NCBI GenBank assembly: GCA_041665145.1
Contig: JBAYJK010000001.1
Coordinates: 293,629-357,628, forward strand
Direction: 5' to 3'
Length of the DNA: 64,000 nt
Origin: Patescibacteria group bacterium
Lineage (GTDB): Bacteria > Patescibacteriota > Microgenomatia > UBA1406
The notes below the pieces were generated by a model. It worked only from the letters and a program-made list of their open reading frames with translations, was not told the origin of the DNA and did no database searches. Shown here piece after piece: positions 5,085 through 62,805 of this stretch (position 1 is its first letter; each line of letters opens with the position of its first letter). The position numbers and the translations under genes are program-made.

Positions 5085-5157
5085 GCTCTTATCGTCTAGA
5101 GGCCTAGGACACCAGGTTCTCAACCTGGGAACACGGGTTCGAATCCCGTTGAGAGCA
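5085..5157 (+). tRNA. tRNA-Glu (anticodon CTC)
   Basis: The sequence is GCTCTTATCGTCTAGAGGCCTAGGACACCAGGTTCTCAACCTGGGAACACGGGTTCGAATCCCGTTGAGAGCA. The acceptor stem is GCTCTTA/TGAGAGC with one G-T pair. The anticodon arm is CCAGG-TTCTCAA-CCTGG and the T arm is ACGGG-TTCGAAT-CCCGT. CCA is not encoded. Confidence 0.9.
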
Positions 5158-35120: not shown

Positions 35121-35621
35121 ATGCTGTATAAATTAAAAGAATTGCTGTATCAATTCATCATGTGCGGGTATTTTCGTATTCACCGGACATACCTGGGCTT
35201 ATTCGTGAAAAAGATGGGTAAAAACGTTGAAATTTGGAGGTCGGTGCACTTTATGGATCCGAAAAATATTTCCATCGGTGATAATGTCATGTTGGCGAGA
35301 AACGTCGATCTTTACGGATTCGGAGGTTTGGAAATCGGAAACCACACGGCAATCGGAGCATATTCCGCCATTATTACCCATAATCATATATTTACGGATA
35401 ACAACAAACCTATTCTGGAACAGGGTCATAAGAGGGAAAAAGTAACCATCGGCACAGATGTGTGGATCGGCACCCATGCCATAATTCTTCCGGGAGTGAC
35501 CATCGGTAATGGGGCTGTTATCGGGGCGGGGGCGGTCGTCACAAAAGACGTGCCGAAATACGCGGTGGTTGTTGGAAACCCAGGGAAGATTGTGAAATAC
35601 AGAAATTCAAAAATCAAATAA
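35121..35621 (+). CDS. hexapeptide-repeat (LbH) acetyltransferase
   Basis: [31 protein letters not shown]...[51 protein letters not shown]. Confidence 0.8.
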
Positions 35622-35724
35622 CAACCCTCAAATCAAATTCAAAGTTCAAATGACAACCTTCAAAAGGTTTTGAATTTTAGATTTGGAATTTGATTTGTCA
35701 TTTGTAGATTTGAATTTTGAATTT
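35602..35724. repeat. AT-rich inverted-repeat hairpin element, gene-less form (copy A)
   Basis: The left arm is GAAATTCAAAAATCAAATAACAA... and the right arm is ...TGATTTGTCATTTGTAGATTTGAATTTTGAATTT. The element overlaps the stop codon of the upstream gene. Confidence 0.85.
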
Positions 35725-35746
35725 GTGAATGTACTAGAATGTTAGT

Positions 35747-35965
35747 ATGTACCTTCTATCACTCTTTCCTATAAAACTCAGCATTCATCAATTAGTGCTT
35801 ATCACCAACTCCATAGTTTTAATCGGCCTTTTGATTGCCGTGGAACTGTGGTCGACAAATGACACCCATAAAGACAAAGCGAAATATTACTACCCGCTGA
35901 TTATGTTGTTTATATTCCTCATGATGTATGCCGGATATGTACAGTTTGCAACACCCAACCTATGA
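35747..35965 (+). CDS. small membrane protein
   Basis: 72 aa with two hydrophobic helices. TAGAAT lies 6 nt upstream of the ATG, and the stop overlaps the next start as ATGA. Confidence 0.4.
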   Translation: MYLLSLFPIKLSIHQLVLITNSIVLIGLLIAVELWSTNDTHKDKAKYYYPLIMLFIFLMMYAGYVQFATPNL

Positions 35966-36705
35966 GTAACTTACGTAAAAACCAAATTTTCATTGCACTT
36001 GCCGCCATTCTTATACTCGCATCACGCATGATCTCTTTTTATTCCCAGGACTACGGGTATCTGGTAAATACAACGCTCTTTGTCGTGTTTGTGTTGTTAA
36101 GCATGTACCGGAAAGATTTACAGAGAGTGCTTATATTACTCTCGGTTATTCCTGCCGCCACAGTTTTCACCATTTCTCTTCCCGTTCCGGCTATTTTCCA
36201 AACACTTCTTTTTTACGCCGCCATATTCCTGACAGGTTTGATTTACTGGTATTTTTTTGAGGAGCAAAAAAAAGTAACCGTATTGCGCTCCGTCACCGCC
36301 AAGCAACTGGTTGTGGGTGTCATCGCCGGGCAAGCGCTCGGGATCGCAAGTTATGTGTTGCTTCCCAAAGTGTATTGGCCGCAGGAGCTCATGACTGCCG
36401 GGCGCATAACTGTTCCCCTGGTTTTTCTTATTTTTATATTGCTTGCAATAACCGAAGAATTGTACTTTCGCCGTTTATTGCAGAAGGAGGTGGGGGAAGT
36501 GGTGAACCCGCATAATGCGCTCGCACTTTCGGCGTGGCTCTACGCATCCCTTGCCGGATCTTTGGGTTTCGGCGTCACATTCTTAGCGCTTGTTGCGGGA
36601 ATCACAATGGCACTCTTGTATTCGGAGAACAAATCGACACTCCAAACGGTCATAGTAAATATCACTATGAAGCTTGTTTTTCTTGCCGCTATCTTCCTTA
36701 TGTGA
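35962..36705 (+). CDS. CPBP-family (CAAX protease-like) intramembrane protease
   Basis: Polytopic protein with the ITEELYFRRLLQ motif (EExxxR), diagnostic of the CPBP/Rce1-like family. Confidence 0.7.
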   Translation: MSNLRKNQIFIALAAILILASRMISFYSQDYGYLVNTTLFVVFVLLSMYRKDLQRVLILLSVIPAATVFTISLPVPAIFQTLLFYAAIFLTGLIYWYFFEEQKKVTVLRSVTAKQLVVGVIAGQALGIASYVLLPKVYWPQELMTAGRITVPLVFLIFILLAITEELYFRRLLQKEVGEVVNPHNALALSAWLYASLAGSLGFGVTFLALVAGITMALLYSENKSTLQTVIVNITMKLVFLAAIFLM

Positions 36706-36749
36706 TTATGATCATTGTGTTGTGAAGAGTAATGATGTATATTGACATC

Positions 36750-37193
36750 ATGAAATCCCGTTTAGCAGGTTTTATTGCCCTGTTTTTATGCCTTTCATTG
36801 TTGATGGTTCCTGCTGTTTTGGCAAATAACCCAGGAGTAACCAGAGTTAGGGGAAATGTCTATGATCAAGACAACGGGGGAGCGGGAATCGGTGGTCTCA
36901 CCGTCAACGTAACTTGCAACGGAAATTCACGAAACGCCACAACTGACGGCAACGGATTATATGTGGTCGACTATACCCGTTCGGAATGCCCGCAGTTTGG
37001 ACCGGTCAGTTCTGCCGTTTCGCACAACGGACAATCCCAGTCTGACACGGTATATGTATCCGACGTGTATACTGCTACGATGGACTTTTACTTCGGGACG
37101 ATAAGCGTTCCGGAATTCGGCATGATCCCGGGAGCGATTGCGGCAATTGGATCAATTGGAACATACCTGGCACTTAGGAGAAAGAGAACCTAA
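36750..37193 (+). CDS. small secreted protein with a C-terminal VPEFG-TM-RRKR sorting signal (PEF/PEFG-CTERM-like)
   Basis: Signal peptide MKSRLAGFIALFLCLSLLMVPAVLA. A carboxypeptidase-regulatory-like beta domain (RGNVYDQDN...GLTVNVTCNGNSRNATTDGNGLY). The C-terminus is ISVPEFGMIPGAIAAIGSIGTYLALRRKRT. The start is trimmed from the ORF-track 36732, with TATATT 6 nt upstream. Confidence 0.65.
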   Translation: MKSRLAGFIALFLCLSLLMVPAVLANNPGVTRVRGNVYDQDNGGAGIGGLTVNVTCNGNSRNATTDGNGLYVVDYTRSECPQFGPVSSAVSHNGQSQSDTVYVSDVYTATMDFYFGTISVPEFGMIPGAIAAIGSIGTYLALRRKRT

Positions 37194-37315
37194 ATTCAAA
37201 GCTCAAATCTACAACCTTCAAATCAAATTCAAAATTCAAATGATAACCTTCAAAAAGTTTTGAATTTTAGATTTTGAATTTGATTTGTCATTTGTCTATT
37301 TGAATTTTGAATTTT
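37192..37315. repeat. AT-rich inverted-repeat hairpin element, gene-less form (copy B)
   Basis: AAATTCAAAGCTCAAATCTACAA...TGATTTGTCATTTGTCTATTTGAATTTTGAATTT. It starts inside the upstream stop codon. Confidence 0.85.
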
Positions 37316-37340
37316 ACTCATCTGCGCCTATAATACCTCT

Positions 37341-38288
37341 ATGCCTTTATTAAAGCGCTTACTCTTATTTTCTGCGCTGTTTATTGTCCTCTCCGGCCTT
37401 GTGGGTCCGTGGGTGATCAGCACCAAGCTTCTCTACGGTTTCTATTTCTTTATCTACCCGAACATGGGGAAGTTACTCATGTTTTCGTTTATCGTGTTTG
37501 TACTTCTTACAAAAGACAAGTTGAATTCAATCGGTGTCATCCCCGCGAAGGCGGGGATCCAGGAGCATCTGGATTCCCGGTCACGTATGCCGGGAATGAC
37601 AGTATCAACTATTCTTTGTTTTCTTTCCTTCGTTCTTTTGATTCCCTTCTACGTATTCGGAAACATGTTGCTCAAAGAACCTTCATTTTTCACCAATCTT
37701 CCTCTTTCTCTCTTTGTTCATTTCCTGTTAATTTCTTCTGTTTTGACTTTATTTGTTTCGGTTTTCGGATTTCGATATTCGATTTTTTTTGCAAAGCAGT
37801 TTAAACGTGAACTAGTTGTCTGTTGCCTGTTGTCTGTTATCTACTATTTCGCGATTTTTTACGTATGGCATTTCTGGCCCCTACTTTCTGACGCAGTTTT
37901 GCAGTCGGTAAAATTCCTGTTCTCCCTATCATATAAAGACGTTATGTTTATTCCTCCACGTGCATTGTACGTTCACAACTTTACGGTGAGTATTGAAGAA
38001 GCCTGTTCGGGCCTCGACAGCATGTTCTTGTTTACGACGCTGTACATACTTATTGGGATTGTTGAACGGAAAACATTCAACATTGCTAAATTGTTGCTAT
38101 TGCTACCCGTAGCGCTTGTCGGCTTATTTCTTGTGAATGTTCTGCGCGTGTATACGCTTATTCTCGTCGGTGTGCTCATAGATCCGAAGCTGACCGTACA
38201 ACTCTTTCACACGTACCTTGGTATGGTTCTCTTCATGGTCTACTTTGCCTTATTTTGGAAAATCTTTTACGGATGGATGAGGAAGTAG
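37341..38288 (+). CDS. exosortase/archaeosortase-family transpeptidase
   Basis: Polytopic protein with the family Cys/Arg/His signature blocks: SIEEACSGLDSMF, LVNVLRVYTLIL and FHTYLGMVLF. It carries an in-frame GC-rich repeat insertion (see findings). Confidence 0.7.
   Translation: MPLLKRLLLFSALFIVLSGLVGPWVISTKLLYGFYFFIYPNMGKLLMFSFIVFVLLTKDKLNSIGVIPAKAGIQEHLDSRSRMPGMTVSTILCFLSFVLLIPFYVFGNMLLKEPSFFTNLPLSLFVHFLLISSVLTLFVSVFGFRYSIFFAKQFKRELVVCCLLSVIYYFAIFYVWHFWPLLSDAVLQSVKFLFSLSYKDVMFIPPRALYVHNFTVSIEEACSGLDSMFLFTTLYILIGIVERKTFNIAKLLLLLPVALVGLFLVNVLRVYTLILVGVLIDPKLTVQLFHTYLGMVLFMVYFALFWKIFYGWMRK
37536..37601. repeat. GC-rich triple-hairpin palindromic element (copy 1), in frame inside the exosortase CDS
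   Basis: GTCAT-CCCCGCGAAGGCGGGG-ATCCAGGAGCATCTGGAT-TCCCGGTCACGTATGCCGGGA-ATGAC, translated as VIPAKAGIQEHLDSRSRMPGMT. Confidence 0.8.
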
Positions 38289-38290
38289 GC

Positions 38291-38397
38291 AAAATTCAAA
38301 GCTCCAATAACAACCTTCAAGTCAAATTCAAAATTCAAATTTTAAACATTTAGATTTTGAATTTGATTTGTCATTTGTCTATTTGAATTTTGAATTT
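38291..38397. repeat. AT-rich inverted-repeat hairpin element, gene-less form (copy C)
   Basis: AAAATTCAAAGCTCCAATAACAA...TGATTTGTCATTTGTCTATTTGAATTTTGAATTT. It begins 3 nt after the exosortase stop. Confidence 0.85.
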
Positions 38398-38412
38398 ATT
38401 TTTCAATTCGGA

Positions 38413-38441
38413 TTGACACAAATTTTATCTTAATGTATACT
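38413..38441 (+). promoter_or_regulatory. sigma70-type promoter TTGACA-N17-TATACT
   Basis: TTGACA at 38413-38418 and TATACT at 38436-38441. GTG 38448 follows after 6 nt, which suggests a leaderless transcript. Confidence 0.55.
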
Positions 38442-38447
38442 ACTTTT

Positions 38448-38912
38448 GTGCAGAATATCACAAAAAAACTAACATTTTCAGCTCTTGTTACTCTTATCCT
38501 CTTTAGCTTAGTGTTAATTCCACAGGCATCGGCACAACCGGCACCCGTTGAACAAACAATTGTAAACGGCCAGGTGAAAGACGGAGCAAACAATCCTGTT
38601 TCCGGAGCATCGGTACAGACAAATTGTAATGGTAATGTGCGAAACACATCAACAAACGGAGACGGTAAATATCAAACGGTCTACACCGGGACGGAATGTC
38701 CGGTTAACACCGTTGTTACCGCTCAAGCTACAGCCGGCAGCCAAAGCGGCGGTGGCAGTGGTCAGGTACAAGAGGTGATTAACACCGGTACCGTGATCAT
38801 CAACGTTGCTCTCATCAATATAGCTGTTCCAGAATTCGGACTCATGACCGGAGCAGTCGCTGCCGTCGGATCATTGGCAGTATTCTTGAAAATGCGAAAG
38901 AAAACAGTCTAG
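38448..38912 (+). CDS. small secreted protein with a C-terminal VPEFG-TM-RKK sorting signal (paralog of 36750..37193)
   Basis: Signal peptide (M)QNITKKLTFSALVTLILFSLVLIPQASA. The same CNGN...ECP domain layout as the paralog. The C-terminus is IAVPEFGLMTGAVAAVGSLAVFLKMRKKTV. The ORF-track start 38433 lies inside the -10 box, so GTG 38448 is preferred. Confidence 0.6.
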   Translation: MQNITKKLTFSALVTLILFSLVLIPQASAQPAPVEQTIVNGQVKDGANNPVSGASVQTNCNGNVRNTSTNGDGKYQTVYTGTECPVNTVVTAQATAGSQSGGGSGQVQEVINTGTVIINVALINIAVPEFGLMTGAVAAVGSLAVFLKMRKKTV

Positions 38913-38917
38913 GTGCA

Positions 38918-39394
38918 GAAATTCAAAGATCAAATCTACAACCCTCAATTGAAATTCAAATGACAACCTTCAATTGAAATCTAAAATTCAAAATACAAAG
39001 AATTATTTCTTGTTAATGGCGCCGAATATGAGAGAGAGTTCTTTGGCTTCCTGAAGGAGCCTAGTAATTAAAGCACGTTGTGTTTCATCTGCAAACTCGA
39101 TCATTCGCAACCAATGGATAGTTTCCTTCGCCTCTTTTTTGCAAATACCAATCTTTGCATGGAAATCTTTTTTGGAGTCGGCACCGTTGGCTTCCATATA
39201 GTTGGCTCCGACACTTGTTGCAGATCTTATTATTTGCGAGATTAGTGGAACAGTAATTATTGTTTTTCTGATGCTGTTGCACAACGAAATTATTTGAGTG
39301 CCAAATAGGGTAGTTCGCACCTCAAGGTCGTATATTTTTTCTCCATTTGAATTTTGAATTTGATTTGTCATTTGTAGATTTGAAGGTTGAATTT
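38918..39394. repeat. 477-bp inverted-repeat-bounded unit enclosing a four-helix-bundle gene (long form, copy 1)
   Basis: 85-nt left arm, a minus-strand ORF at 39003..39371, and a 23-nt right arm. The termini are AAATTCAAAGATCAAATCTACAA on the left and, as reverse complement, AAATTCAACCTTCAAATCTACAA on the right. Confidence 0.75.
39003..39371 (-). CDS. four-helix-bundle protein (23S rRNA intervening-sequence protein family)
   Basis: 122 aa with LISQIIRSATSVGANYMEANGADSKKDFHAKIGICKKEAKETIHWLRMI, which matches the TIGR02436/PF05635-type pattern (R.A.S...N..EA......DF..K...A.KE..ET..WL). Confidence 0.8.
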   Translation of the reverse strand: MTNQIQNSNGEKIYDLEVRTTLFGTQIISLCNSIRKTIITVPLISQIIRSATSVGANYMEANGADSKKDFHAKIGICKKEAKETIHWLRMIEFADETQRALITRLLQEAKELSLIFGAINKK

Positions 39395-39470
39395 ATTATC
39401 CACCTCATGTTTATCAAATACCACGGTTTATAGGCATCATCTACGCCCAAAGTACTGTATAATGTATCAC

Positions 39471-50861: not shown

Positions 50862-50873
50862 ATTATTTTTTAT

Positions 50874-50989
50874 AAATTCAAAGCTCAAATGACAACCTTC
50901 AATTGAAATTCAAAATTCAAGCTTCAAAATAGTTTTGAATTTTAGATTTTGAATTTGATTTGTCATTTGTATATTTGATTTTTGAATTT
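50874..50989. repeat. AT-rich inverted-repeat hairpin element, gene-less form (copy F; coordinates +/-2)
   Basis: AAATTCAAAGCTCAAATGACAACCTTCAATTGAAATTCAAAATTCAAGC...TGATTTGTCATTTGTATATTTGATTTTTGAATTT. It abuts the stop codon of 50990..51445. Confidence 0.8.
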
Positions 50990-51445
50990 TTATTCTTTCA
51001 CTCCATTCAGCCAGAAGTGTATCGTTTGTTTTTTATTAACCAGGTTTACCTCCACTTTTACCCGATCATGGTTTTCACCAATAGAGTAGGTTATTTTTTT
51101 GGTTATGTACGCGTCATGTATAAGCACAAACGTGCCGGTTTGCAAAACCTGTTGGTAACCGTCCGCGCCAGTTGCTTTAACCGTATACGGGTATTCCATG
51201 TCAGTGTATTCTAGGTTATGTACGGTAAATTTGAACGTTTGTTCTTCTTCCGGGATTATTCGGGTAGGTAATTTAAGGTGGTCTTCAAAATAAAGCTCCG
51301 TAAACGTTTCGGGTAAGGGAACCAATTTCCAGACTTTTAGCTGTTCATAGATGGCGTCCTGCTTGACATAGAGCGCCACAGCAAACATTGTGATGAATAT
51401 AAACGTCAGAATTAACACCAGTTTTTGTAACCACGGTTTTACCAT
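50990..51445 (-). CDS. membrane-anchored hypothetical protein
   Basis: The start is trimmed to MVKPWLQKLVLILTFIFITMFAVALYV (N-terminal TM anchor), followed by a beta-rich ectodomain. No family recognised. Confidence 0.4.
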   Translation of the reverse strand: MVKPWLQKLVLILTFIFITMFAVALYVKQDAIYEQLKVWKLVPLPETFTELYFEDHLKLPTRIIPEEEQTFKFTVHNLEYTDMEYPYTVKATGADGYQQVLQTGTFVLIHDAYITKKITYSIGENHDRVKVEVNLVNKKQTIHFWLNGVKE

Positions 51446-51514
51446 AAGGCAGGATTTGTAACTTACAGCACAATTATACTGGAAATAGCCTAGAATTAGC
51501 AAGCGAACAAGGGT

Positions 51515-51694
51515 AAATTCAAAGCTCAAATGACAACCTTCAATTGAAATTCAAAATCTGAATGTCACCCCCGGAACAAAGTACCGGGGATCCAGATTCC
51601 ATCCCTGGATTCCCGACTGGATCGGGAATGACACCTTTTGGAGTTTTGAATTTTGAGTTTCATTTGTAGATTTGTCCATTTGAATTTTGAATTT
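51515..51694. repeat. composite repeat: AT-rich hairpin element (copy G) with a GC-rich triple-hairpin element nested at its centre (51563..51633)
   Basis: AAATTCAAAGCTCAAATGACAACCTTCAATTGAAATTCAAAATCTGAA [TGTCACCCCCGGAACAAAGTACCGGGGATCCAGATTCCATCCCTGGATTCCCGACTGGATCGGGAATGACA] CCTTTTGGAGTTTTGAATTTTGAGTTTCATTTGTAGATTTGTCCATTTGAATTTTGAATTT. Confidence 0.8.
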
Positions 51695-51717
51695 AAGAAA
51701 AATATATAATAGAACCA

Positions 51718-53274
51718 ATGTCTCCAAACCGTTCCAATAAAAAACTTCTCTTCTTCCTCATTTTCGCCACCATAGTTTTGGGAGTAACCAACGTGTATTT
51801 GTTTGTGGACCGGTATGTTACGGCTAAAAACGAAGCTGTTCGAAAGGAAAACGAGCGCAAAGCGATTCTCGAAGGCATGTCTGCTGTGCCGACACAGGTA
51901 ACTGTGGATTTGTCCAAAAAAACCGTCACTGGCTCTCCTTTGATCTTCGGAGGTTCCAGTTTTCCAGACCAATTACACACTGGAGTAATGGATAAACTGA
52001 AAGCTGTTGGTGTAACGAATATTCGAAAGGACTTTTTTTTGGAATACACCTCTCCAGCTGGAATAACCTTGGACAGCTATAGAAGAAACGATAACAATAT
52101 TCAAGATATAGCCAATTGGAGGACAAAAGATATTGGTTGGGCGAATACGAATTTCGTGTCAGCCAAAAGTCGAGGAATGAAGATGATGGGAATAGTAACG
52201 TATGCTCCAAAATGGCTGACACATTCAGGTAATGAGCATGGAGTTCCAAAAGATTGGGGAGTATATGAGGATATTGTAAAAAAACTATATAAGCACTATA
52301 GAGACAATTTGGATTATCTTGAAATGTGGAATGAGCCAACATACAAATATTTTTTGGATCCAGCGGGTAGCGGGTTAACTCGGGAAGAGGCGTATCTACA
52401 AATATTTCTGCATGCATCTAAAGCTATTCGAGAAGTAGATAGTGAGATAAATGATGGAAAGAAAATTCCCGTTGGTGGTTTTGTAGCTCACACTCCCACG
52501 GAAACAGGATTGCTTGAATACCTTATGCAAAACGAAGAATTTAGAAAGTCTATTAATTTTATCAGCTACCACAATTACGAACATGTGCCGGAACCATCAT
52601 GGACGGCATACAAAACGATACTTGCAAAATACGGAATGCAAAATTTACCTGTTTTTTTGACGGAATGGAATTATTCTCCAGGCTTTAAAGAATACAATTC
52701 CAAACTAGTCGGTGATGAAGCAGTAACGTACACAGGAGATAAACTAACTAGCTTTTTGAACATGGGCCTTGCCGGGGCAAACTATTTTGCCCTTATTGCA
52801 GAAGATGCCAAATTTACCACACCATGGAGCGGATACTTGGCTTTTTATAAATGGGAAAATGGGAAAGCGACATTACTTCCTCAAGCAAAAACGTGGAGGC
52901 TGATGAGTGTTAGCCTTGCTCTCGGGAAAGGGAAAAGCCAAGTATATGAGACAAGCTATAAAGACAAAGAAATTAACGCTGCCGGGTTTACAAACGTAAA
53001 GGGCCAAAAAGGTACGGTGCTCGTGAACAAGGGAACCACTGGCAAATTGGTAAACGTTTCTTTTAAAAACTTAGGTGCCCCGAAACATGTAATTATCGAA
53101 GAATTTATTGCCGATCCCGATCATGACGGAGGGACTGCAGTGCGGAAAGAGTACGTGGATGAACCCGGAGAAGCGTTGAACTTTACCATGTATGTGCCGG
53201 CGCAGAGCGTGGTTGGTGTTTTGTTGTCGGATACAAGTAAGATGCAGGAAATACTCAAGCTATTCTTCAAATAG
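51718..53274 (+). CDS. membrane-anchored clan GH-A glycoside hydrolase-like protein
   Basis: N-terminal TM anchor. LEMWNEPTY (NEP acid/base-type motif) and VFLTEWNYS (TEW nucleophile-type motif), as in GH5/GH39-like TIM-barrel enzymes. Confidence 0.5.
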   Translation: MSPNRSNKKLLFFLIFATIVLGVTNVYLFVDRYVTAKNEAVRKENERKAILEGMSAVPTQVTVDLSKKTVTGSPLIFGGSSFPDQLHTGVMDKLKAVGVTNIRKDFFLEYTSPAGITLDSYRRNDNNIQDIANWRTKDIGWANTNFVSAKSRGMKMMGIVTYAPKWLTHSGNEHGVPKDWGVYEDIVKKLYKHYRDNLDYLEMWNEPTYKYFLDPAGSGLTREEAYLQIFLHASKAIREVDSEINDGKKIPVGGFVAHTPTETGLLEYLMQNEEFRKSINFISYHNYEHVPEPSWTAYKTILAKYGMQNLPVFLTEWNYSPGFKEYNSKLVGDEAVTYTGDKLTSFLNMGLAGANYFALIAEDAKFTTPWSGYLAFYKWENGKATLLPQAKTWRLMSVSLALGKGKSQVYETSYKDKEINAAGFTNVKGQKGTVLVNKGTTGKLVNVSFKNLGAPKHVIIEEFIADPDHDGGTAVRKEYVDEPGEALNFTMYVPAQSVVGVLLSDTSKMQEILKLFFK

Positions 53275-53750
53275 AAATTCAAAATTCAAATCTACAACCC
53301 TCAATTGAAATTCAAATGACAGCCTTCAATTGAAATCTAAAATTCAAAATTCAAAGAATCATTTCTTGTTAATGGCACCGAAAATGAGTGAAAGTTCTTT
53401 GGCTTCCTGAAGAAGCTTCAGAATAAACGATTTCTGAGTTCCGTCGGCAAATTCAATCATTCGCAACCAATGAATTGTTTCTTTCGACTCTTTTTTGCAG
53501 ATACTTATTTTTGCATGGAAATCTTTTTTTGAATCGGCGCCATTAGCTTCCATGTAATTGGCGCCCACACTTGTTGCAGATCTGATAATCTGCGAAATCA
53601 ACGGTGCAGTGACAATAGTTTTCTTTACATTGTTACAAAGAGTGATTACTTGAGTACCGAATACGCTTGTCCGTTCTTCCAGATCGTATATTTTCTCTCC
53701 ATTTGAATTTTGTGCTTGATTTGTCATTTGTAGATTTGAAGGTTGAGTTT
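53274..53750. repeat. 477-bp inverted-repeat-bounded unit enclosing a four-helix-bundle gene (long form, copy 2)
   Basis: It has the same length and layout as 38918..39394. The left arms match at 81 of 85 nt and the right arms at 22 of 23 nt by hand alignment. Confidence 0.75.
53359..53727 (-). CDS. four-helix-bundle protein (23S rRNA intervening-sequence protein family), paralog
   Basis: 122 aa. It differs from the 39003..39371 product at about 19 positions and shares the SQIIRSATSVGANYMEANGADSKKDFHAKI...KETIHWLRMIEFAD core. Confidence 0.8.
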   Translation of the reverse strand: MTNQAQNSNGEKIYDLEERTSVFGTQVITLCNNVKKTIVTAPLISQIIRSATSVGANYMEANGADSKKDFHAKISICKKESKETIHWLRMIEFADGTQKSFILKLLQEAKELSLIFGAINKK

Positions 53751-53877
53751 CTAATAAGTCTTATGATTCCTGACTCCTAACTCTTGACTCATATATAGTT
53801 TCCCTCGCTTCTCTCGGGAAATCAACGGTTTATACACCTCAATACTCATACTATAGGTTTATTTGATATAATACCAT

Positions 53878-54777: not shown

Positions 54778-55680
54778 ATGACACGTGAGCGAACGCCTAA
54801 TCCTACAGACCTGCTTGCTGCTCTCAGAGACACATCCGGATATGTTGATTTTGCACGAGTAGTCGTGGCTCGAAAGATGGGTAGAGTAGAGCTTTCCGCT
54901 ATTGGAGCAGAACTTGACCAGATATTCAGAAAAGACTTGGTTATGTGTGCCCGACAAGGTATTGTAGAATCGGTTCCTTCAGGCACTCTTAATTGTGTTC
55001 CCAGGCCAAACTTATTTGATGTTTCTGTTGCCGCGGTTTTTCGGGCGCTTGATCAACTGAAAATTATGGTTCCCCTGACAGAAATACCCCACGTACAACG
55101 TGTGGAGGCAGTTATGGCTGCATTTACCCGGAGAGCTCTTCGGGAAATACGTATGACTTCACGAAATGCACAGTACATGAATCCCGGAATCGTTCTTGCC
55201 GAAGATATGCTGGATGAAGCGTCGGATGCCCGTATGGGTTTGTTGTTAGGAATAAGTGCACCTGAGCTGAGAAGAAGTTTGGTAGATCCGCATGTTGCCG
55301 AAATGAAAGATTCTGCAGCTATTCGGCAACGGGAGGATTCTATGCCTAAAGCCGGACGGAATATACAGATAGGTGAACAAATGGTTGCTACGGCGCACGA
55401 GGGCTTCAGTATGACTCAGTCGCCGCGTGATTCTCTGTATTATTGGATTGCCAGGGCACAAGCATTTGATATTCCCCTCAACGATCATGAAGTAGTATTG
55501 CTCCATGCAATTGCGCAAACAACAAATGCCCGACATACGCTTCATCAGACAATTGAGGCCAACAAGCTTTCTCCCGCGCTTGACCAACCGTCGTCCGAGG
55601 CACTTATTGCCGGTATGTCAGACTTGAATGCTCTCCACACGTGGGGAAGAGCAAGGACGGGAATTGTGACTGCTAAGTAA
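54778..55680 (+). CDS. hypothetical protein
   Basis: Long ORF with no family recognised. ATG 54778 (MTRERTPNP...) is preferred over the TTG at 54730. Confidence 0.35.
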   Translation: MTRERTPNPTDLLAALRDTSGYVDFARVVVARKMGRVELSAIGAELDQIFRKDLVMCARQGIVESVPSGTLNCVPRPNLFDVSVAAVFRALDQLKIMVPLTEIPHVQRVEAVMAAFTRRALREIRMTSRNAQYMNPGIVLAEDMLDEASDARMGLLLGISAPELRRSLVDPHVAEMKDSAAIRQREDSMPKAGRNIQIGEQMVATAHEGFSMTQSPRDSLYYWIARAQAFDIPLNDHEVVLLHAIAQTTNARHTLHQTIEANKLSPALDQPSSEALIAGMSDLNALHTWGRARTGIVTAK

Positions 55681-55785
55681 AATTCAAAGCTCAAATGACA
55701 ACCTTCAATTGAAATTCAAAGTTCAAATTTTAAATATTTAGATTTTGAATTTGATTTGTCATTTGTAGATTTGAATTTTGAATTT
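55679..55785. repeat. AT-rich inverted-repeat hairpin element, gene-less form (copy I)
   Basis: AAAATTCAAAGCTCAAATGACAACCTTCAATTGAAATTCAAAGTTCAAATTTTAAATATTTAGATTTTGAATTTGATTTGTCATTTGTAGATTTGAATTTTGAATTT. It overlaps the upstream stop codon. Confidence 0.85.
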
Positions 55786-55821
55786 AGTGTTTCTTCCCAG
55801 TACGCATACTATAGGCCGAAT

Positions 55822-58863: not shown

Positions 58864-59241
58864 GTGATCAATAGTTTCACTGATTTAAGCTCATGGCAAA
58901 TTTCTCATCAACTCGTCATTGAGGTTTATCAAGTGACTAAATTATTTCCTACTACTGAAACGTACTCTCTCACAGATCAGATGAGAAGGGCAGCGGTATC
59001 GATAACAAGTAATATTGCTGAGGGTTTCGGCAGAAAAGCTGTTAAAGAGAAAATCCAGTTCTACCACTTATCACTTGGATCAACTACCGAGTTACATAAT
59101 CAATGCATGTTGGCAAGAGATCTGGGATACGTAAATACTGATTACTATGAAAAAATCGAACAAAGAATAATTGTAGTTTACAAGCTTATTTGGGCTTCGA
59201 TCCGCTCATTCAAACAATTTTCAAATCACTCTAAACTATAA
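58864..59241 (+). CDS. four-helix-bundle protein (23S rRNA intervening-sequence protein family), divergent third copy
   Basis: GTG start. FTDLSSWQISHQLVIEVYQVTKLFPTTETYSLTDQMRRAAVSITSNIAEGFGRKAVKEKIQFYHLSLGSTTELHNQ is a textbook pattern for this family. Confidence 0.85.
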   Translation: MINSFTDLSSWQISHQLVIEVYQVTKLFPTTETYSLTDQMRRAAVSITSNIAEGFGRKAVKEKIQFYHLSLGSTTELHNQCMLARDLGYVNTDYYEKIEQRIIVVYKLIWASIRSFKQFSNHSKL

Positions 59242-59421: not shown

Positions 59422-59460
59422 ATGTATTGAAAAACTAATAATGCCTGTATTCAATATAAC

Positions 59461-59744
59461 AAATTCAAAATTCAAATGACAACCCTCAAGTGAAATTCAA
59501 AATTCGAATCTACAACCCTCAATTCAAATTCAAAGCTCAAACATCATTCCCGCACAAGTGATGTCATTCCCGCGTAGGCGGGAATCCAGGAACTTTGTAT
59601 CTGGATCCCCGGTATTTGTATTCCGGGGATGACAAACATATCTAGATTGCCGCGCTTCATCCCGCTGAGCGGGACTTCGCTCGCAATGACGCCTTTTGAA
59701 TTTTGAATTTGATTTGTCATTTGTCTATTTGAATTTTGAGTTTT
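59461..59744. repeat. composite repeat: AT-rich hairpin element (copy J) with nested GC-rich elements (59541..59693)
   Basis: The arms are AAATTCAAAATTCAAATGACAACCCTCAAG... and ...TTTTGAATTTTGAATTTGATTTGTCATTTGTCTATTTGAATTTTGAGTTTT. The centre holds a triple-hairpin copy at 59563..59633 plus a second GC-rich palindrome (TTGCCGCGCTTCATCCCGCTGAGCGGGACTTCGCTCGCAATGAC). Confidence 0.8.
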
Positions 59745-59767
59745 ACCTGTCCTGGTATAATACCCAC

Positions 59768-62655: not shown

Positions 62656-62788
62656 AAATTCAAAGCACAAATAGACAAATTTACAAATCAAGCTTAAAAT
62701 TCAAAGGCTGAAACTTCAGGAATATTATGTTTGGTAACATTTGATTTTTGAATTTGATTTGTCATTTGTGGATTTGAATTTTGAATTT
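62656..62788. repeat. AT-rich inverted-repeat hairpin element, gene-less form (copy K, most divergent left arm)
   Basis: AAATTCAAAGCACAAATAGACAAATTTACAAATCAAGC...TTGATTTTTGAATTTGATTTGTCATTTGTGGATTTGAATTTTGAATTTT. Confidence 0.75.
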
Positions 62789-62805
62789 TCTGCTAAGATA
62801 ATTCT

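Follow-up and report, generated by a model that had tools for sequence, protein, structure and literature searches.

The hairpin motif called NTS (Neisseria Transformation Sequence) or SRM (Ssn-related motif) is the single-stranded DNA target of the Ssn GIY-YIG nucleases, and the palindrome known in Neisseria as dRS3 forms part of it (Chenal et al., Nat Commun 2025, PMC11893778). A comparable arrangement is found in the REPINs, which are doublets of REP sequences mobilised by RAYT, a single-copy HUH tyrosine transposase (PMC3116915, PMC3337134). We note that the repeat lying in frame within an exosortase gene of a Patescibacteria genome, in a 64-kb stretch of DNA that we refer to as the window, reads as a tail-to-tail NTS/SRM doublet, that is, as a selfish palindromic repeat of 66-67 nt. 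We put the probability of this reading at about 0.7.

The Patescibacteria are a group without mention in PMC11893778, and the same holds for intragenic or in-frame copies, whereas the copy described here is translated. The repeat family itself is already known, while its paired form and its in-frame insertions into genes appear to be without description in the literature searched; a search on the encoded peptides found no report. Descriptions of the motif and its nuclease go back no further than 2025; to them this locus adds a compact inverted doublet that has the ends of the nuclease-gene unit, recurs near-identically in very distant phyla, and lies in frame inside working, including essential, genes.

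Anatomy of the exosortase copy and its identity with NTS/SRM

On the plus strand, positions 37536-37601 read GTCAT-CCCCGC GAAG GCGGGG-ATCCAG GAGCAT CTGGAT-TCCCGG TCACGTATG CCGGGA-ATGAC(A). These are three adjacent hairpins bracketed by GTCAT and ATGAC, with the letters that an earlier note on this DNA had given, and that note was also right to call them a GC-rich island in an AT-rich gene (62% G+C in the element versus 40% in the remainder of the gene). The two-fold symmetry of the element and its identity with NTS/SRM had been missed there. A single half consists of (Y)GTCAT, a 6-bp G+C-rich hairpin and ATCCAG; since the two NTS halves face each other, their ATCCAG tails pair to give the third hairpin and their GTCAT ends pair to give the outer stem. 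The conserved flanks of 86 copies in other genomes define the ends as Y-GTCAT...ATGAC-R, which moves the left end of the exosortase copy one base further out and makes it 67 nt long (37535-37601). As single-stranded DNA it folds into the outer stem and three hairpins at -22.3 kcal/mol (z = -4.85, with 0 of 200 shuffles as good), and the complementary strand has the same fold. The features are collected in Table 1.

Table 1. Features of the exosortase locus and of the related repeats in the window (strand "." where none is assigned).
Feature	Position	Strand	Basis
Exosortase/archaeosortase family protein, 315 aa, insert = residues 66-87	37341..38288	+	PF09721, TIGR04178, homologue alignment, AlphaFold
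NTS/SRM doublet, TGTCAT...ATGACA, 67 nt, within the exosortase gene	37535..37601	.	Letters, both-strand folding, Y/R flanks
Half 1, near-canonical NTS, TGTCATCCCCGCGAAGGCGGGGATCCAG, 6-bp stem, loop GAAG	37535..37562	+	SRM consensus match
Middle hairpin, loop GAGCAT, from the 3' tails ATCCAG/CTGGAT of the two inverted halves	37557..37574	.	Letters, folding
Half 2, long-loop variant of the NTS, minus-strand letters TGTCATTCCCGGCATACGTGACCGGGAATCCAG	37569..37601	-	SRM consensus match, minus strand
Exosortase letters flanking the insert: ...TTCAATCGG before, GTATCAAC... after	either side of 37535..37601		
Second doublet, 71 nt, intergenic, opposite polarity (long-loop half at left), apex of an AT-rich long palindrome	51563..51633	.	
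Third doublet, 73 nt, intergenic; left half a strict dRS3 match, ATTCCCGCGTAGGCGGGAAT	59562..59634	.	
AT-rich long palindrome (family B) with the second doublet at its tip	51513..51702	.	Repeat family D1-D3, alignment, fold
Family B element with the third doublet and an SRM-like singlet variant, 59640-59690 (-)	59459..59751	.	Repeat family D1-D3, alignment
Likely exosortase substrate, C-terminus VPEFG-hydrophobic stretch-RRKRT	36732..37193	+	Translation; PEF-CTERM-like tail by eye, no family model match
Second likely exosortase substrate, C-terminus VPEFG-hydrophobic stretch-KMRKKTV	38433..38912	+	Translation

Of the six window halves, five are recovered when the published SRM consensus (HGTCWY N0-2 YYVSBRH N0-5 WNVSBRG N0-2 RNCYNB) is used as search pattern, and the sixth (51605-51633, minus strand) mismatches it solely in the inner stem pair and the loop. 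All six halves have a hairpin-forming palindromic core, oriented with the GTCAT flank on its 5' side, and carry a C directly 3' of the palindrome, the base reported as most crucial for Ssn binding (PMC11893778). Two of the window halves differ from the Neisseria NTS consensus, CGTCATTCCCGCGMAVGCGGGAATCYRG, by 2-3 substitutions; half 1 has three, two of which amount to one compensated T:A to C:G pair. The exact dRS3 form, ATTCCC-N8-GGGAAT, is found at 59566-59585, while positions 37539-37558 are its compensated form ATCCCC-N8-GGGGAT and fit only a relaxed dRS3, ATYCCC-N8-GGGRAT; the long-loop halves have no dRS3 match. The element is therefore like NTS/SRM in its consensus, hairpin core, GTCAT head, the C after the palindrome and its multi-copy occurrence. 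It departs from the published motif in being present here solely in tight doublets, joined tail to tail and folding into a four-way junction, and in the 9-10-nt loops of half of the window hairpins, compared to loops of 4 nt.

The same letters also fold stably as RNA (-38.6 kcal/mol, z = -3.9), and one may ask whether the element acts at that level, its four-way junction being an sRNA-like or mRNA-stabilising structure, or a translational pause that aids the membrane insertion of the exosortase. At gathering thresholds an Rfam scan of the window returned tRNA only, and a relaxed scan added only a sub-threshold match to the Francisella sRNA FtrB (RF02748), scoring 25.8 bits where the gathering score is 66. 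FtrB does exist as a transcript and carries an NTS hairpin (PMC3091763), and it is this NTS-type hairpin, GTCATTCCCGCGTAGGCGGGAATC, that accounts for the weak match; membership of the FtrB family was rejected on the score, with only the hairpin region aligning well and the window copy lying in coding sequence. Several points make a role as RNA very improbable to us: the element has a symmetric build and lies either way round with respect to genes, the intergenic copies differ in context (one between divergent genes, one upstream of a plus-strand gene), deletion of ftrB was without phenotype (PMC3091763), RNA is not a substrate for Ssn (PMC11893778), and no Rfam family reaches threshold for the element.

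Copies elsewhere in the window and in other genomes

The two further copies for which the earlier note had claimed an intergenic position do have real genes on either side, with ends at 51563/4-51633 and 59562/3-59634. Its claim that the three copies differ by paired changes in the stems and freely in the loops holds on comparing them, and the compensation extends to other genomes, where the outer stem pair of about 200 copies is counted as T-A 264, C-G 101 and non-complementary 13. The half-element pattern has 4 matches in the 64-kb window with 0.00 expected, and the published SRM pattern has 5 with 0.22 expected; six halves per 64 kb, against an expectation of about 0, is repetition well above chance. 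The three window copies are about 78-82% identical to each other, and could be old and by now immobile. They have a common polar build, a short-loop half joined to a long-loop half of the form YCCCGG-N9-10-CCGGGR, and their alignments score 41-44 in the polar orientation compared to 20-31 in the other. This shared polar architecture suggests that the doublet itself was copied as a unit.

Both intergenic doublets form the apex of long AT-rich palindromes belonging to another repeat family (family B), which was absent from the earlier note. The family B palindrome at 51513-51702 folds at -41.1 kcal/mol (z = -6.3), and the right arm of the element at 59459-59751 retains the opening codons, read as MTNQIQNS, of a gene for a four-helix bundle. 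The flanks of 86 copies in other genomes are complementary at position 1 only, which means that a larger palindrome surrounds only a minority of the copies elsewhere, though it does surround two of the three in the window. Two candidates from this neighbourhood were dropped: the variant at 59640-59690 folds no better than shuffles (z about -1.4) and is not counted as a further structured copy, and four-helix-bundle genes are no general partners of the motif, being present in 2 of 360 loci and adjacent to it in neither.

All three doublets fall at 37-60 kb of the window, among glycosyltransferases, polysaccharide synthesis genes and the exosortase with its substrates, in DNA of lower G+C with many other repeats; no doublet was found in the other ~55 kb of the ~81 kb examined (window plus flanks). 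In having G+C-rich hairpins within lower-G+C repeats near surface-protein genes, the locus resembles the dRS3/NIME arrays (PMC1797815). The dRS3 families, however, are described as non-coding; they lie beside RS elements in long arrays, and phages integrate at them. The present doublets stand isolated, belong to an unrelated phylum and include one coding copy. The setting nonetheless raises the possibility that the doublets are cis elements serving the host by marking variable cell-surface genes, as proposed for the NTS/dRS3 arrays of Neisseria, with the exosortase copy as part of the marking and with exchange controlled by recombination between repeats or by Ssn cutting incoming single-stranded DNA. 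In Neisseria the NTS is indeed clustered near surface and virulence genes and has a modulating effect on transformation (PMC11893778), and dRS3/NIME arrays flank variable genes (PMC1797815). We consider such a role unlikely for the present doublets: three copies are insufficient for demonstrating clustering, a control site needs no place inside a coding sequence, no ssn gene lies nearby in the ~81 kb examined, and the in-frame copies in IleRS and UvrA of other phyla better fit random insertion filtered by selection.

Those copies belong to a wide distribution. Doublets occur at no fewer than 120 genome loci, at least, in Pseudomonadota, Planctomycetota, Nitrospirota, Gemmatimonadota, Acidobacteriota, Omnitrophota, Desulfobacterota and several Patescibacteria, and they have exactly the translations, of the VIPAKAGIQ and LDSR type, that the earlier note had given as usual for a widespread small palindromic repeat. 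A large class of odd peptides, VIPAKAGIQ, SFPRKRESS, LDSRFRGND and WIPAFAGMT, met both in real proteins and in spurious-looking short ORFs, is explained as the same DNA motif translated. In the part of the doublet that was free of the search pattern, the third hairpin is completed in 178 of 200 matches, and 159 of those 178 end in ATGAC. In an unbiased half-motif sample of metagenomes, 26 motifs belonged to tight doublets, another 26 had an inverted partner at a looser spacing, and 82 stood as singlets; among doublets the middle loop ranges from 3 to 25 nt.

Further in-frame doublets lie in UvrA, IleRS (two copies), HsdR and HsdS, and alignment of these proteins with solved structures places extra residues exactly at the doublet positions. 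The lengths of 88 sampled intergenic doublets are spread 23/32/33 over the three classes modulo 3. There is no sign of the element adapting to translation: doublets leave 3.3 of 6 frames open compared to 2.8 of 6 in shuffled sequences, an excess so slight that we dropped the idea of selection for stop-free frames.

Shared termini with ssn units and a possible mode of movement

A GIY-YIG ORF adjoins the motif in 16 of the 360 loci fetched, and a Pfam match to PF01541 bears this out for two. Eight of the 16 have the gene between NTS(+) and NTS(-), the GTCAT ends facing outward, as a unit of about 365-445 nt with a product of roughly 95 aa; this is the NTS-ssnA-NTS arrangement noted by the authors of PMC11893778. 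The ends of these units match those of the doublet, YGTCAT-hairpin-ATCCAG on the left and CTGGAT-like-hairpin-ATGACR on the right, though the inner tails vary in some units, and in one Patescibacteria locus a GIY-YIG gene lies about 70 nt from a doublet. Given these common termini, the doublet looks like a gene-less, REPIN- or MITE-like form of the unit. Unlike that unit, the window doublets have no ssn gene between their halves or nearby: in the window, a regular expression and phmmer run on every ORF of 50 aa or more found no GIY-YIG gene, nor was there one in flanks of 8 kb and 9 kb reached through the edge proteins (~81 kb of the ~919-kb genome in total).

A far-reaching proposal, which we rate as possible but short of probable, is that the doublet is the transposition unit of an as yet undescribed class of mobile DNA, driven by the GIY-YIG nuclease Ssn instead of a transposase, in the manner of REPIN and RAYT, which would extend across most bacterial phyla including Patescibacteria with their reduced genomes and would repeatedly have added in-frame loops of 20-25 residues to proteins, IleRS, UvrA, restriction subunits and the exosortase among them. 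The origin that we propose within our main reading is narrower: the doublet would be a non-autonomous derivative of NTS-ssn-NTS that lacks the gene, standing to it as a REPIN does to RAYT or a MITE to its IS. An Ssn nuclease encoded elsewhere would cut a few bases outside either GTCAT end, one cut per strand, and the doublet would be copied as one unit while the DNA is single-stranded. One copy landed in the basic loop between the two N-terminal helices of the exosortase, and presumably survived there because the frame was kept, no stop was in frame, and a hydrophilic, disordered stretch of 22 residues was tolerated. Mobilisation by Ssn is what we infer; Chenal et al. demonstrated that Ssn cleaves and that transformation is affected, but did not demonstrate transposition, and the mobility of NTS-ssn-NTS is their hypothesis too (PMC11893778). 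A derivative that lacks the gene and is mobilised in trans by way of single-stranded DNA offers a concrete and testable model for the multiplication of such repeats.

The likeness to REPINs and RAYTs (PMC3116915, PMC3337134) is architectural only. Both systems have two inverted hairpin repeats with a short spacer, a doublet as the apparent unit of copying, a small nuclease gene that is itself flanked by the repeat, and single-stranded DNA hairpins as the recognised form; the element has, however, no relation to REP sequences, and the associated genes are GIY-YIG (PF01541) and not HUH/Y1 transposases. A classical MITE was rejected as well: the termini are inverted repeats, yet the 86 copies have no 2-5 nt duplication. 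At these copies we found neither a target-site duplication of that size nor a target motif beyond the Y/R flank, and there is accordingly no transposition footprint. An empty site was not found either, the closest non-self exosortase being 52% identical, and the exact exosortase protein had no match in the contig index. Logan contigs of the neighbouring gene are 100% identical to the window where they overlap, and one of them stops within the family B repeat, with about 55 nt still to go to the start codon of the exosortase.

Alternatively, the exosortase copy might be the remnant of a full NTS-ssn-NTS unit that lost ssn in place and never moved as a short doublet. Full units do have the same termini and polarity, and a middle loop varying as it does among doublets is what deletion remnants would be expected to leave. 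A unit of about 365-445 nt with its own ORF and stops would, however, have kept the exosortase inactive for as long as no exact in-frame deletion had taken place. The polar architecture common to the three window copies suggests instead that it was the doublet itself that was copied, and among the sampled loci doublets are much more numerous than full units. We therefore find an origin by deletion decidedly unlikely.

The comparison with the Rickettsia palindromic elements (RPEs) drawn in the earlier note is apt as an analogy of in-frame behaviour. Like RPEs and intragenic MITEs (ERIC and others; PMC10969869), the element is a palindromic selfish repeat that lies in frame in functional, even essential genes and yields a surface-loop peptide while leaving the protein intact. 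The likeness does not extend to membership: RPEs are described as about 150 bp long and belong to Rickettsia, compared to 66-73 bp and many phyla for the present element, which has no target-site duplication and is, to judge by the description of RPEs (PMC10969869), of a different sequence family.

The exosortase and its insert

The host gene matches PF09721 (E = 1.9e-13, 50.8 bits against a cut-off of 25.7) and TIGR04178 (E = 1.9e-15, 56.9 against a cut-off of 23). As the earlier note had it, the element is read through as 22 open-frame codons, VIPAKAGIQEHLDSRSRMPGMT, residues 66-87 of the 315-aa ORF at 37341-38288, and the ORF stays open with its Cys/Arg/His blocks intact, C222, R269 and H290 being invariant in an alignment of 29 sequences. 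The segment is missing from all 28 homologues (36-54% identity), which have a single loop length at this position, and the insertion is specific to this lineage, as the note had proposed; its size needs correction, with a net gain over the homologues of 16 alignment columns and not 22. The insert falls, again as described, between two N-terminal hydrophobic segments and is itself hydrophilic. In the AlphaFold model (overall pLDDT 88.5, pTM 0.79), residues 65-89 are coil with a pLDDT of 47-64, between two confident helices.

It might be argued that the segment belongs natively to the protein and is under selection, or that the palindrome arose by chance, and that no repeat was inserted, the loop being basic in the homologues and the insert contributing K70, R80 and R82. 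We give this hardly any credence: none of the 28 homologues has the segment and their loop length is fixed, the same DNA occurs twice between genes of the window and in hundreds of unrelated places, and the chance expectation is about 0. Taken as an inserted NTS/SRM doublet, the 22-residue stretch is probably tolerated by the exosortase as a neutral passenger and is not an adaptation. To judge by its sequence the gene looks still functional with the insert, and on either side of it lies a gene whose product ends in VPEFG, a TM stretch and basic residues, as expected of likely substrates; we infer that the exosortase is active. The public annotation calls it an archaeosortase/exosortase family protein and has no pseudogene label; for annotation, the gene should not be labelled a pseudogene, nor should the 22 residues be labelled a functional motif. 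As a separate observation, the loop that carries the insert has roughly 6 residues missing relative to the homologues.

Identity and architecture of the element

The GC-rich "triple hairpin" within the exosortase gene is two inverted copies of one oriented motif, because the half pattern GTCATYCCCGS-loop-SCGGGRATCCAG matches once per strand in the copies at 37535 and 59562, giving two-fold symmetry. Each half of this doublet has its own hairpin, while the ATCCAG tails pair to form the middle hairpin and the GTCAT heads pair to form the outer stem. The 66-nt sequence reported in the earlier note (37536-37601, GTCAT CCCCGC-GAAG-GCGGGG ATCCAG-GAGCAT-CTGGAT TCCCGG-TCACGTATG-CCGGGA ATGAC(A)), its three hairpins and its three copies were all borne out, with the refinement that conserved flanks in other genomes set the ends at Y-GTCAT...ATGAC-R, that is, 37535-37601 (67 nt). 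Fold prediction on ssDNA gives an outer stem around three directly adjoining hairpins (-22.3 kcal/mol; z = -4.85 against 200 dinucleotide shuffles, 0/200 as good) and the complementary strand folds identically; G+C is 62% in the element versus 40% in the remainder of the gene.

Chenal et al. 2025 (PMC11893778) defined the Neisseria Transformation Sequence (NTS), CGTCATTCCCGCGMAVGCGGGAATCYRG, which includes the older dRS3 palindrome ATTCCC-N8-GGGAAT, and likewise a degenerate "Ssn-related motif" (SRM). SsnA, a small GIY-YIG protein, binds the NTS hairpin solely as ssDNA and cleaves in the variable flank a few bases upstream of it, RNA and duplex DNA not being substrates, and the motif often flanks ssn genes across bacteria (PMC11893778). 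The published SRM pattern matches five of the six doublet halves in the window (0.22 expected); 59562-59589 differs from the NTS consensus at two positions and 37535-37562 at three, two of which constitute one compensated T:A to C:G pair, and there is an exact dRS3 match at 59566-59585. The element is thus a member of the known NTS/SRM, dRS3 repeat family. The overall interpretation first offered was essentially right, and the compact doublet form appears to be new, no earlier description having been found in the literature searched.

Looser pattern scans of the window gave three complete doublets and no isolated halves, so that the doublet is the sole NTS/SRM form seen in them. The second and third copies, described previously as intergenic, indeed both lie between real genes. 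All three are built with the same polarity, combining a short-loop half with a long-loop half (YCCCGG-N9-10-CCGGGR), and align with scores of 41-44 in that shared orientation versus 20-31 otherwise, at about 78-82% identity; this polarity fits copying of the whole doublet, rather than chance pairing of singlets. Beside the third doublet, 59640-59690 (-) (CGTCATTGCGAGCGAAGTCCCGCTCAGCGGGATGAAGCGCGGCAATCTAG) begins with a GTCAT head and, read on the minus strand, contains the hairpin TCCCGC-TCA-GCGGGA (plus-strand loop TGA). It resembles an SRM-type singlet that has degenerated or is of another kind; its fold is no better than that of shuffled sequence.

An RNA role for the doublet would draw on its stable RNA fold (-38.6 kcal/mol) and on a sub-threshold FtrB match, the latter owed to the common NTS hairpin, but the element is symmetric and Ssn has no activity on RNA, and we regard such a role as highly improbable. 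At curated thresholds the single Rfam match in the window is a tRNA gene.

In-frame copies in the exosortase and other genes

The doublet encodes VIPAKAGIQEHLDSRSRMPGMT, which makes up residues 66-87 of the exosortase, whose public annotation (918,908-bp Patescibacteria contig) carries the same family name. As had been proposed, these 22 codons are read through in an open ORF that keeps its catalytic residues (C222, R269 and H290 are invariant in the alignment), and nothing found would suggest a pseudogene. Alignment with 28 homologues (36-54% identity) revealed the insert to be lineage-specific and within a loop: all 28 have a single loop length at the site and lack the segment, and the query alone has 16 extra columns. 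A native protein segment is excluded by these homologues and by the repetition of the same DNA elsewhere. The net gain of 16 rather than 22 residues reflects either the loss of about six loop residues with the insertion or a shorter ancestral loop in this lineage. We found no empty site, the nearest other exosortase among 5.8 billion proteins being 52% identical, and no exact match to the protein in the contig index searched.

In an AlphaFold model built with the homologue alignment (mean pLDDT 88.5, pTM 0.79), residues 65-89 form a disordered coil (block mean pLDDT 63, 47 and 64) between helices 38-64 and 90-98. The insert is hydrophilic with hydrophobic segments on both sides, and because the equivalent loop in homologues is Lys/Arg-rich we suggest that the loop is cytoplasmic.

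In-frame insertion is a general trait of the element. Several of 88 complete doublets from genome loci likewise fall within long ORFs, and at four loci Pfam confirmed the host genes as real (see table). In the isoleucyl-tRNA synthetase (IleRS) and UvrA alignments, extra residues relative to solved structures coincide with the doublet peptides: about 38 between IleRS query positions 932 and 976, a larger block between 290 and 394, and a UvrA linker of 42 residues versus 6. Besides its two doublets, the same IleRS carries two or more other segments that solved IleRS proteins lack, around residues 320-393 and 506-553, at least one of them seemingly from a different repeat (…PGLTRGPASS…APDQVRGDE…). 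The earlier statement that VIPAKAGIQ...LDSR-type peptides translate a widespread repeat proved sound, the peptides seen being VIPAKAGIQ, SFPRKRESS, HSRESGNP, LDSRLRGND and WIPAFAGMT. Since the 3-4 stop-free frames of six per doublet barely exceed those of shuffled sequences (3.3 vs 2.8), the copies that survive within genes seem to be random insertions that have passed through selection, with no sign of design.

That palindromic repeats can insert in frame is well established for Rickettsia palindromic elements and some other MITEs (PMC10969869), and the likeness to the former drawn earlier holds as a parallel in gene colonisation. In work on Neisseria, dRS3 is regarded as a non-coding family, whereas one of the window doublets is coding; the terms "in-frame", "intragenic" and Patescibacteria are absent from the Ssn paper (PMC11893778).

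Distribution and the link to ssn

A scan of species-representative genomes found the doublet at at least 120 loci, hosts among the matches listed including Alpha-, Beta-, Gamma- and Deltaproteobacteria, Planctomycetota, Nitrospirae, Gemmatimonadota, Acidobacteria, Zixibacteria, Omnitrophota, Kiritimatiellia, Aminicenantes and several Patescibacteria. This, with four half-element matches in the window versus 0.00 expected, excludes a chance palindrome. The search pattern left the 3' half of the third hairpin and the right end free, and the hairpin was completed in 178/200 matches, 159 of these 178 ending in ATGAC. The paired, compensatory stem changes pointed out among the window copies recur in other genomes: the outermost pair is T-A in 264, C-G in 101 and non-complementary in 13, and the inner pair also varies by double substitutions.

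Half-motif scans are not biased towards doublets; in metagenome contigs, tight doublets account for 26 motifs, another 26 have a looser inverted partner and 82 are singlets, and in viral contigs nearly all are singlets, so the doublet is a common, not universal, form. Among 95 doublets in the sampled loci (L001-L360), 48 are mixed C:G/T:A, 42 T:A/T:A and one C:G/C:G, the last against about 7 from marginal frequencies; all three window doublets are mixed, a type that would make local hairpins preferable to a single long one.

A GIY-YIG ORF lies beside the motif in 16/360 sampled loci (two of the 16 confirmed by Pfam PF01541). In eight of the 16, a gene of ~95 residues sits between a plus-strand and a minus-strand NTS with GTCAT ends outward, as YGTCAT-hairpin-ATCCAG [gene, either orientation] CTGGAT-hairpin-ATGACR, about 365-445 nt in total, with variable inner tails in some (e.g. 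TAGAT or CCGGAT instead of CTGGAT). These ssn units and the 66-73-nt doublet have identical ends and polarity. At a Patescibacteria locus, L065, a GIY-YIG gene lies about 70 nt from a doublet whose halves, TGTCATTCCCGCGAACGCGGGAATCCAG, closely resemble the window copy at 59562.

Most simply, the doublet would be an NTS-ssn-NTS unit without the gene, related to the full unit as REPINs are to RAYT-flanking REPs (PMC3116915, PMC3337134). Acting on single-stranded DNA, Ssn would make a single cut in each strand, a few bases beyond the GTCAT end, and such cuts could lead to copying of the doublet. Several results count against this mechanism: no GIY-YIG gene was found in the window or 17 kb of flanking sequence, doublets showed no target-site duplication or target motif, no empty site was seen, and the three window copies have diverged. 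Transposition of NTS-ssn units is raised by the Ssn-paper authors as no more than a hypothesis (PMC11893778). Presumably the short doublet, rather than the full unit, was inserted here because a ~365-445-nt unit with an ORF would have broken the exosortase. Alternatively, doublets might serve the host, as has been proposed in Neisseria, through control of DNA exchange near clusters of surface genes; all three copies do lie in a repeat-rich cell-envelope region, but coding copies in housekeeping genes elsewhere are left unexplained, and we consider this unlikely.

Genomic surroundings

Features of the window and genes elsewhere with in-frame doublets
Feature	Location	Strand	Details
Doublet	37535-37601		
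Doublet	51563-51633		
Doublet	59562-59634		
Exosortase/archaeosortase family ORF	37341-38288		315 residues; PF09721 E = 1.9e-13, TIGR04178 E = 1.9e-15
CPBP/Rce1-like intramembrane protease	35962-36705		upstream of exosortase
Small secreted protein	36732-37193		VPEFG-TM-basic C-terminus
Small secreted protein	38433-38912		VPEFG-TM-basic C-terminus
tRNA gene	5085-5157	+	
AT-rich palindrome	35601-35732		
AT-rich palindrome	37191-37322		
AT-rich palindrome	38290-38405		
AT-rich palindrome	38918-39402		
AT-rich palindrome	50872-50997		
AT-rich palindrome	51513-51702		
AT-rich palindrome	53274-53758		
AT-rich palindrome	55678-55793		
AT-rich palindrome	59459-59751		
AT-rich palindrome	62677-62796		
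Four-helix-bundle gene	39003-39371	-	23S rRNA intervening-sequence protein (PF05635, TIGR02436)
Four-helix-bundle gene	53359-53727	-	as above
Four-helix-bundle gene	58864-59241	+	as above
UvrA	L026 (Ramlibacter genome)		in-frame doublet
Isoleucyl-tRNA synthetase	L100:3305-6631	-	two in-frame doublets
Type I restriction R subunit	L077		in-frame doublet
Type I restriction S subunit	L059		in-frame doublet

The exosortase is part of a compact sorting cassette with the protease and two VPEFG proteins, one on each side, which are small and Ig-like or carboxypeptidase-regulatory-like; read by eye, VPEFG with a hydrophobic stretch and basic tail looks like a PEF-CTERM-type sorting signal. An AT-rich palindrome separates each pair of successive cassette genes. 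A homologous exosortase, P0020, has an extra C-terminal ...KKPVRQAQGKLNQ tail missing in other homologues, which looks like read-through into another repeat kind. Where they overlap the window, independent short-read contigs match it with 100% identity (L365, Logan SRR6484324, window 35686-37285; L362 and L364, from a second Logan sample, SRR18595301, lie at the window edges). Because L365 ends within the AT-rich palindrome directly upstream of the exosortase, we take these repeats to fragment assemblies.

This second repeat family comprises imperfect palindromes of ~125 nt composed of AAATTCAAA / TTTGAATTT units, which fill many intergenic regions at 35.6-62.8 kb and whose folds are much more stable than those of shuffles (z about -6). 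At the tip they vary, with nothing, a four-helix-bundle gene or an NTS doublet there. The layout is similar to that of 23S rRNA intervening sequences, although the palindromes lie instead between protein genes. Two of the three four-helix-bundle genes, all within 20 kb, are inside palindromes, the right arm encoding their first codons (MTNQIQNS); a 58-codon ORF at 59544-59720 (-) has the same start and then enters the NTS doublet.
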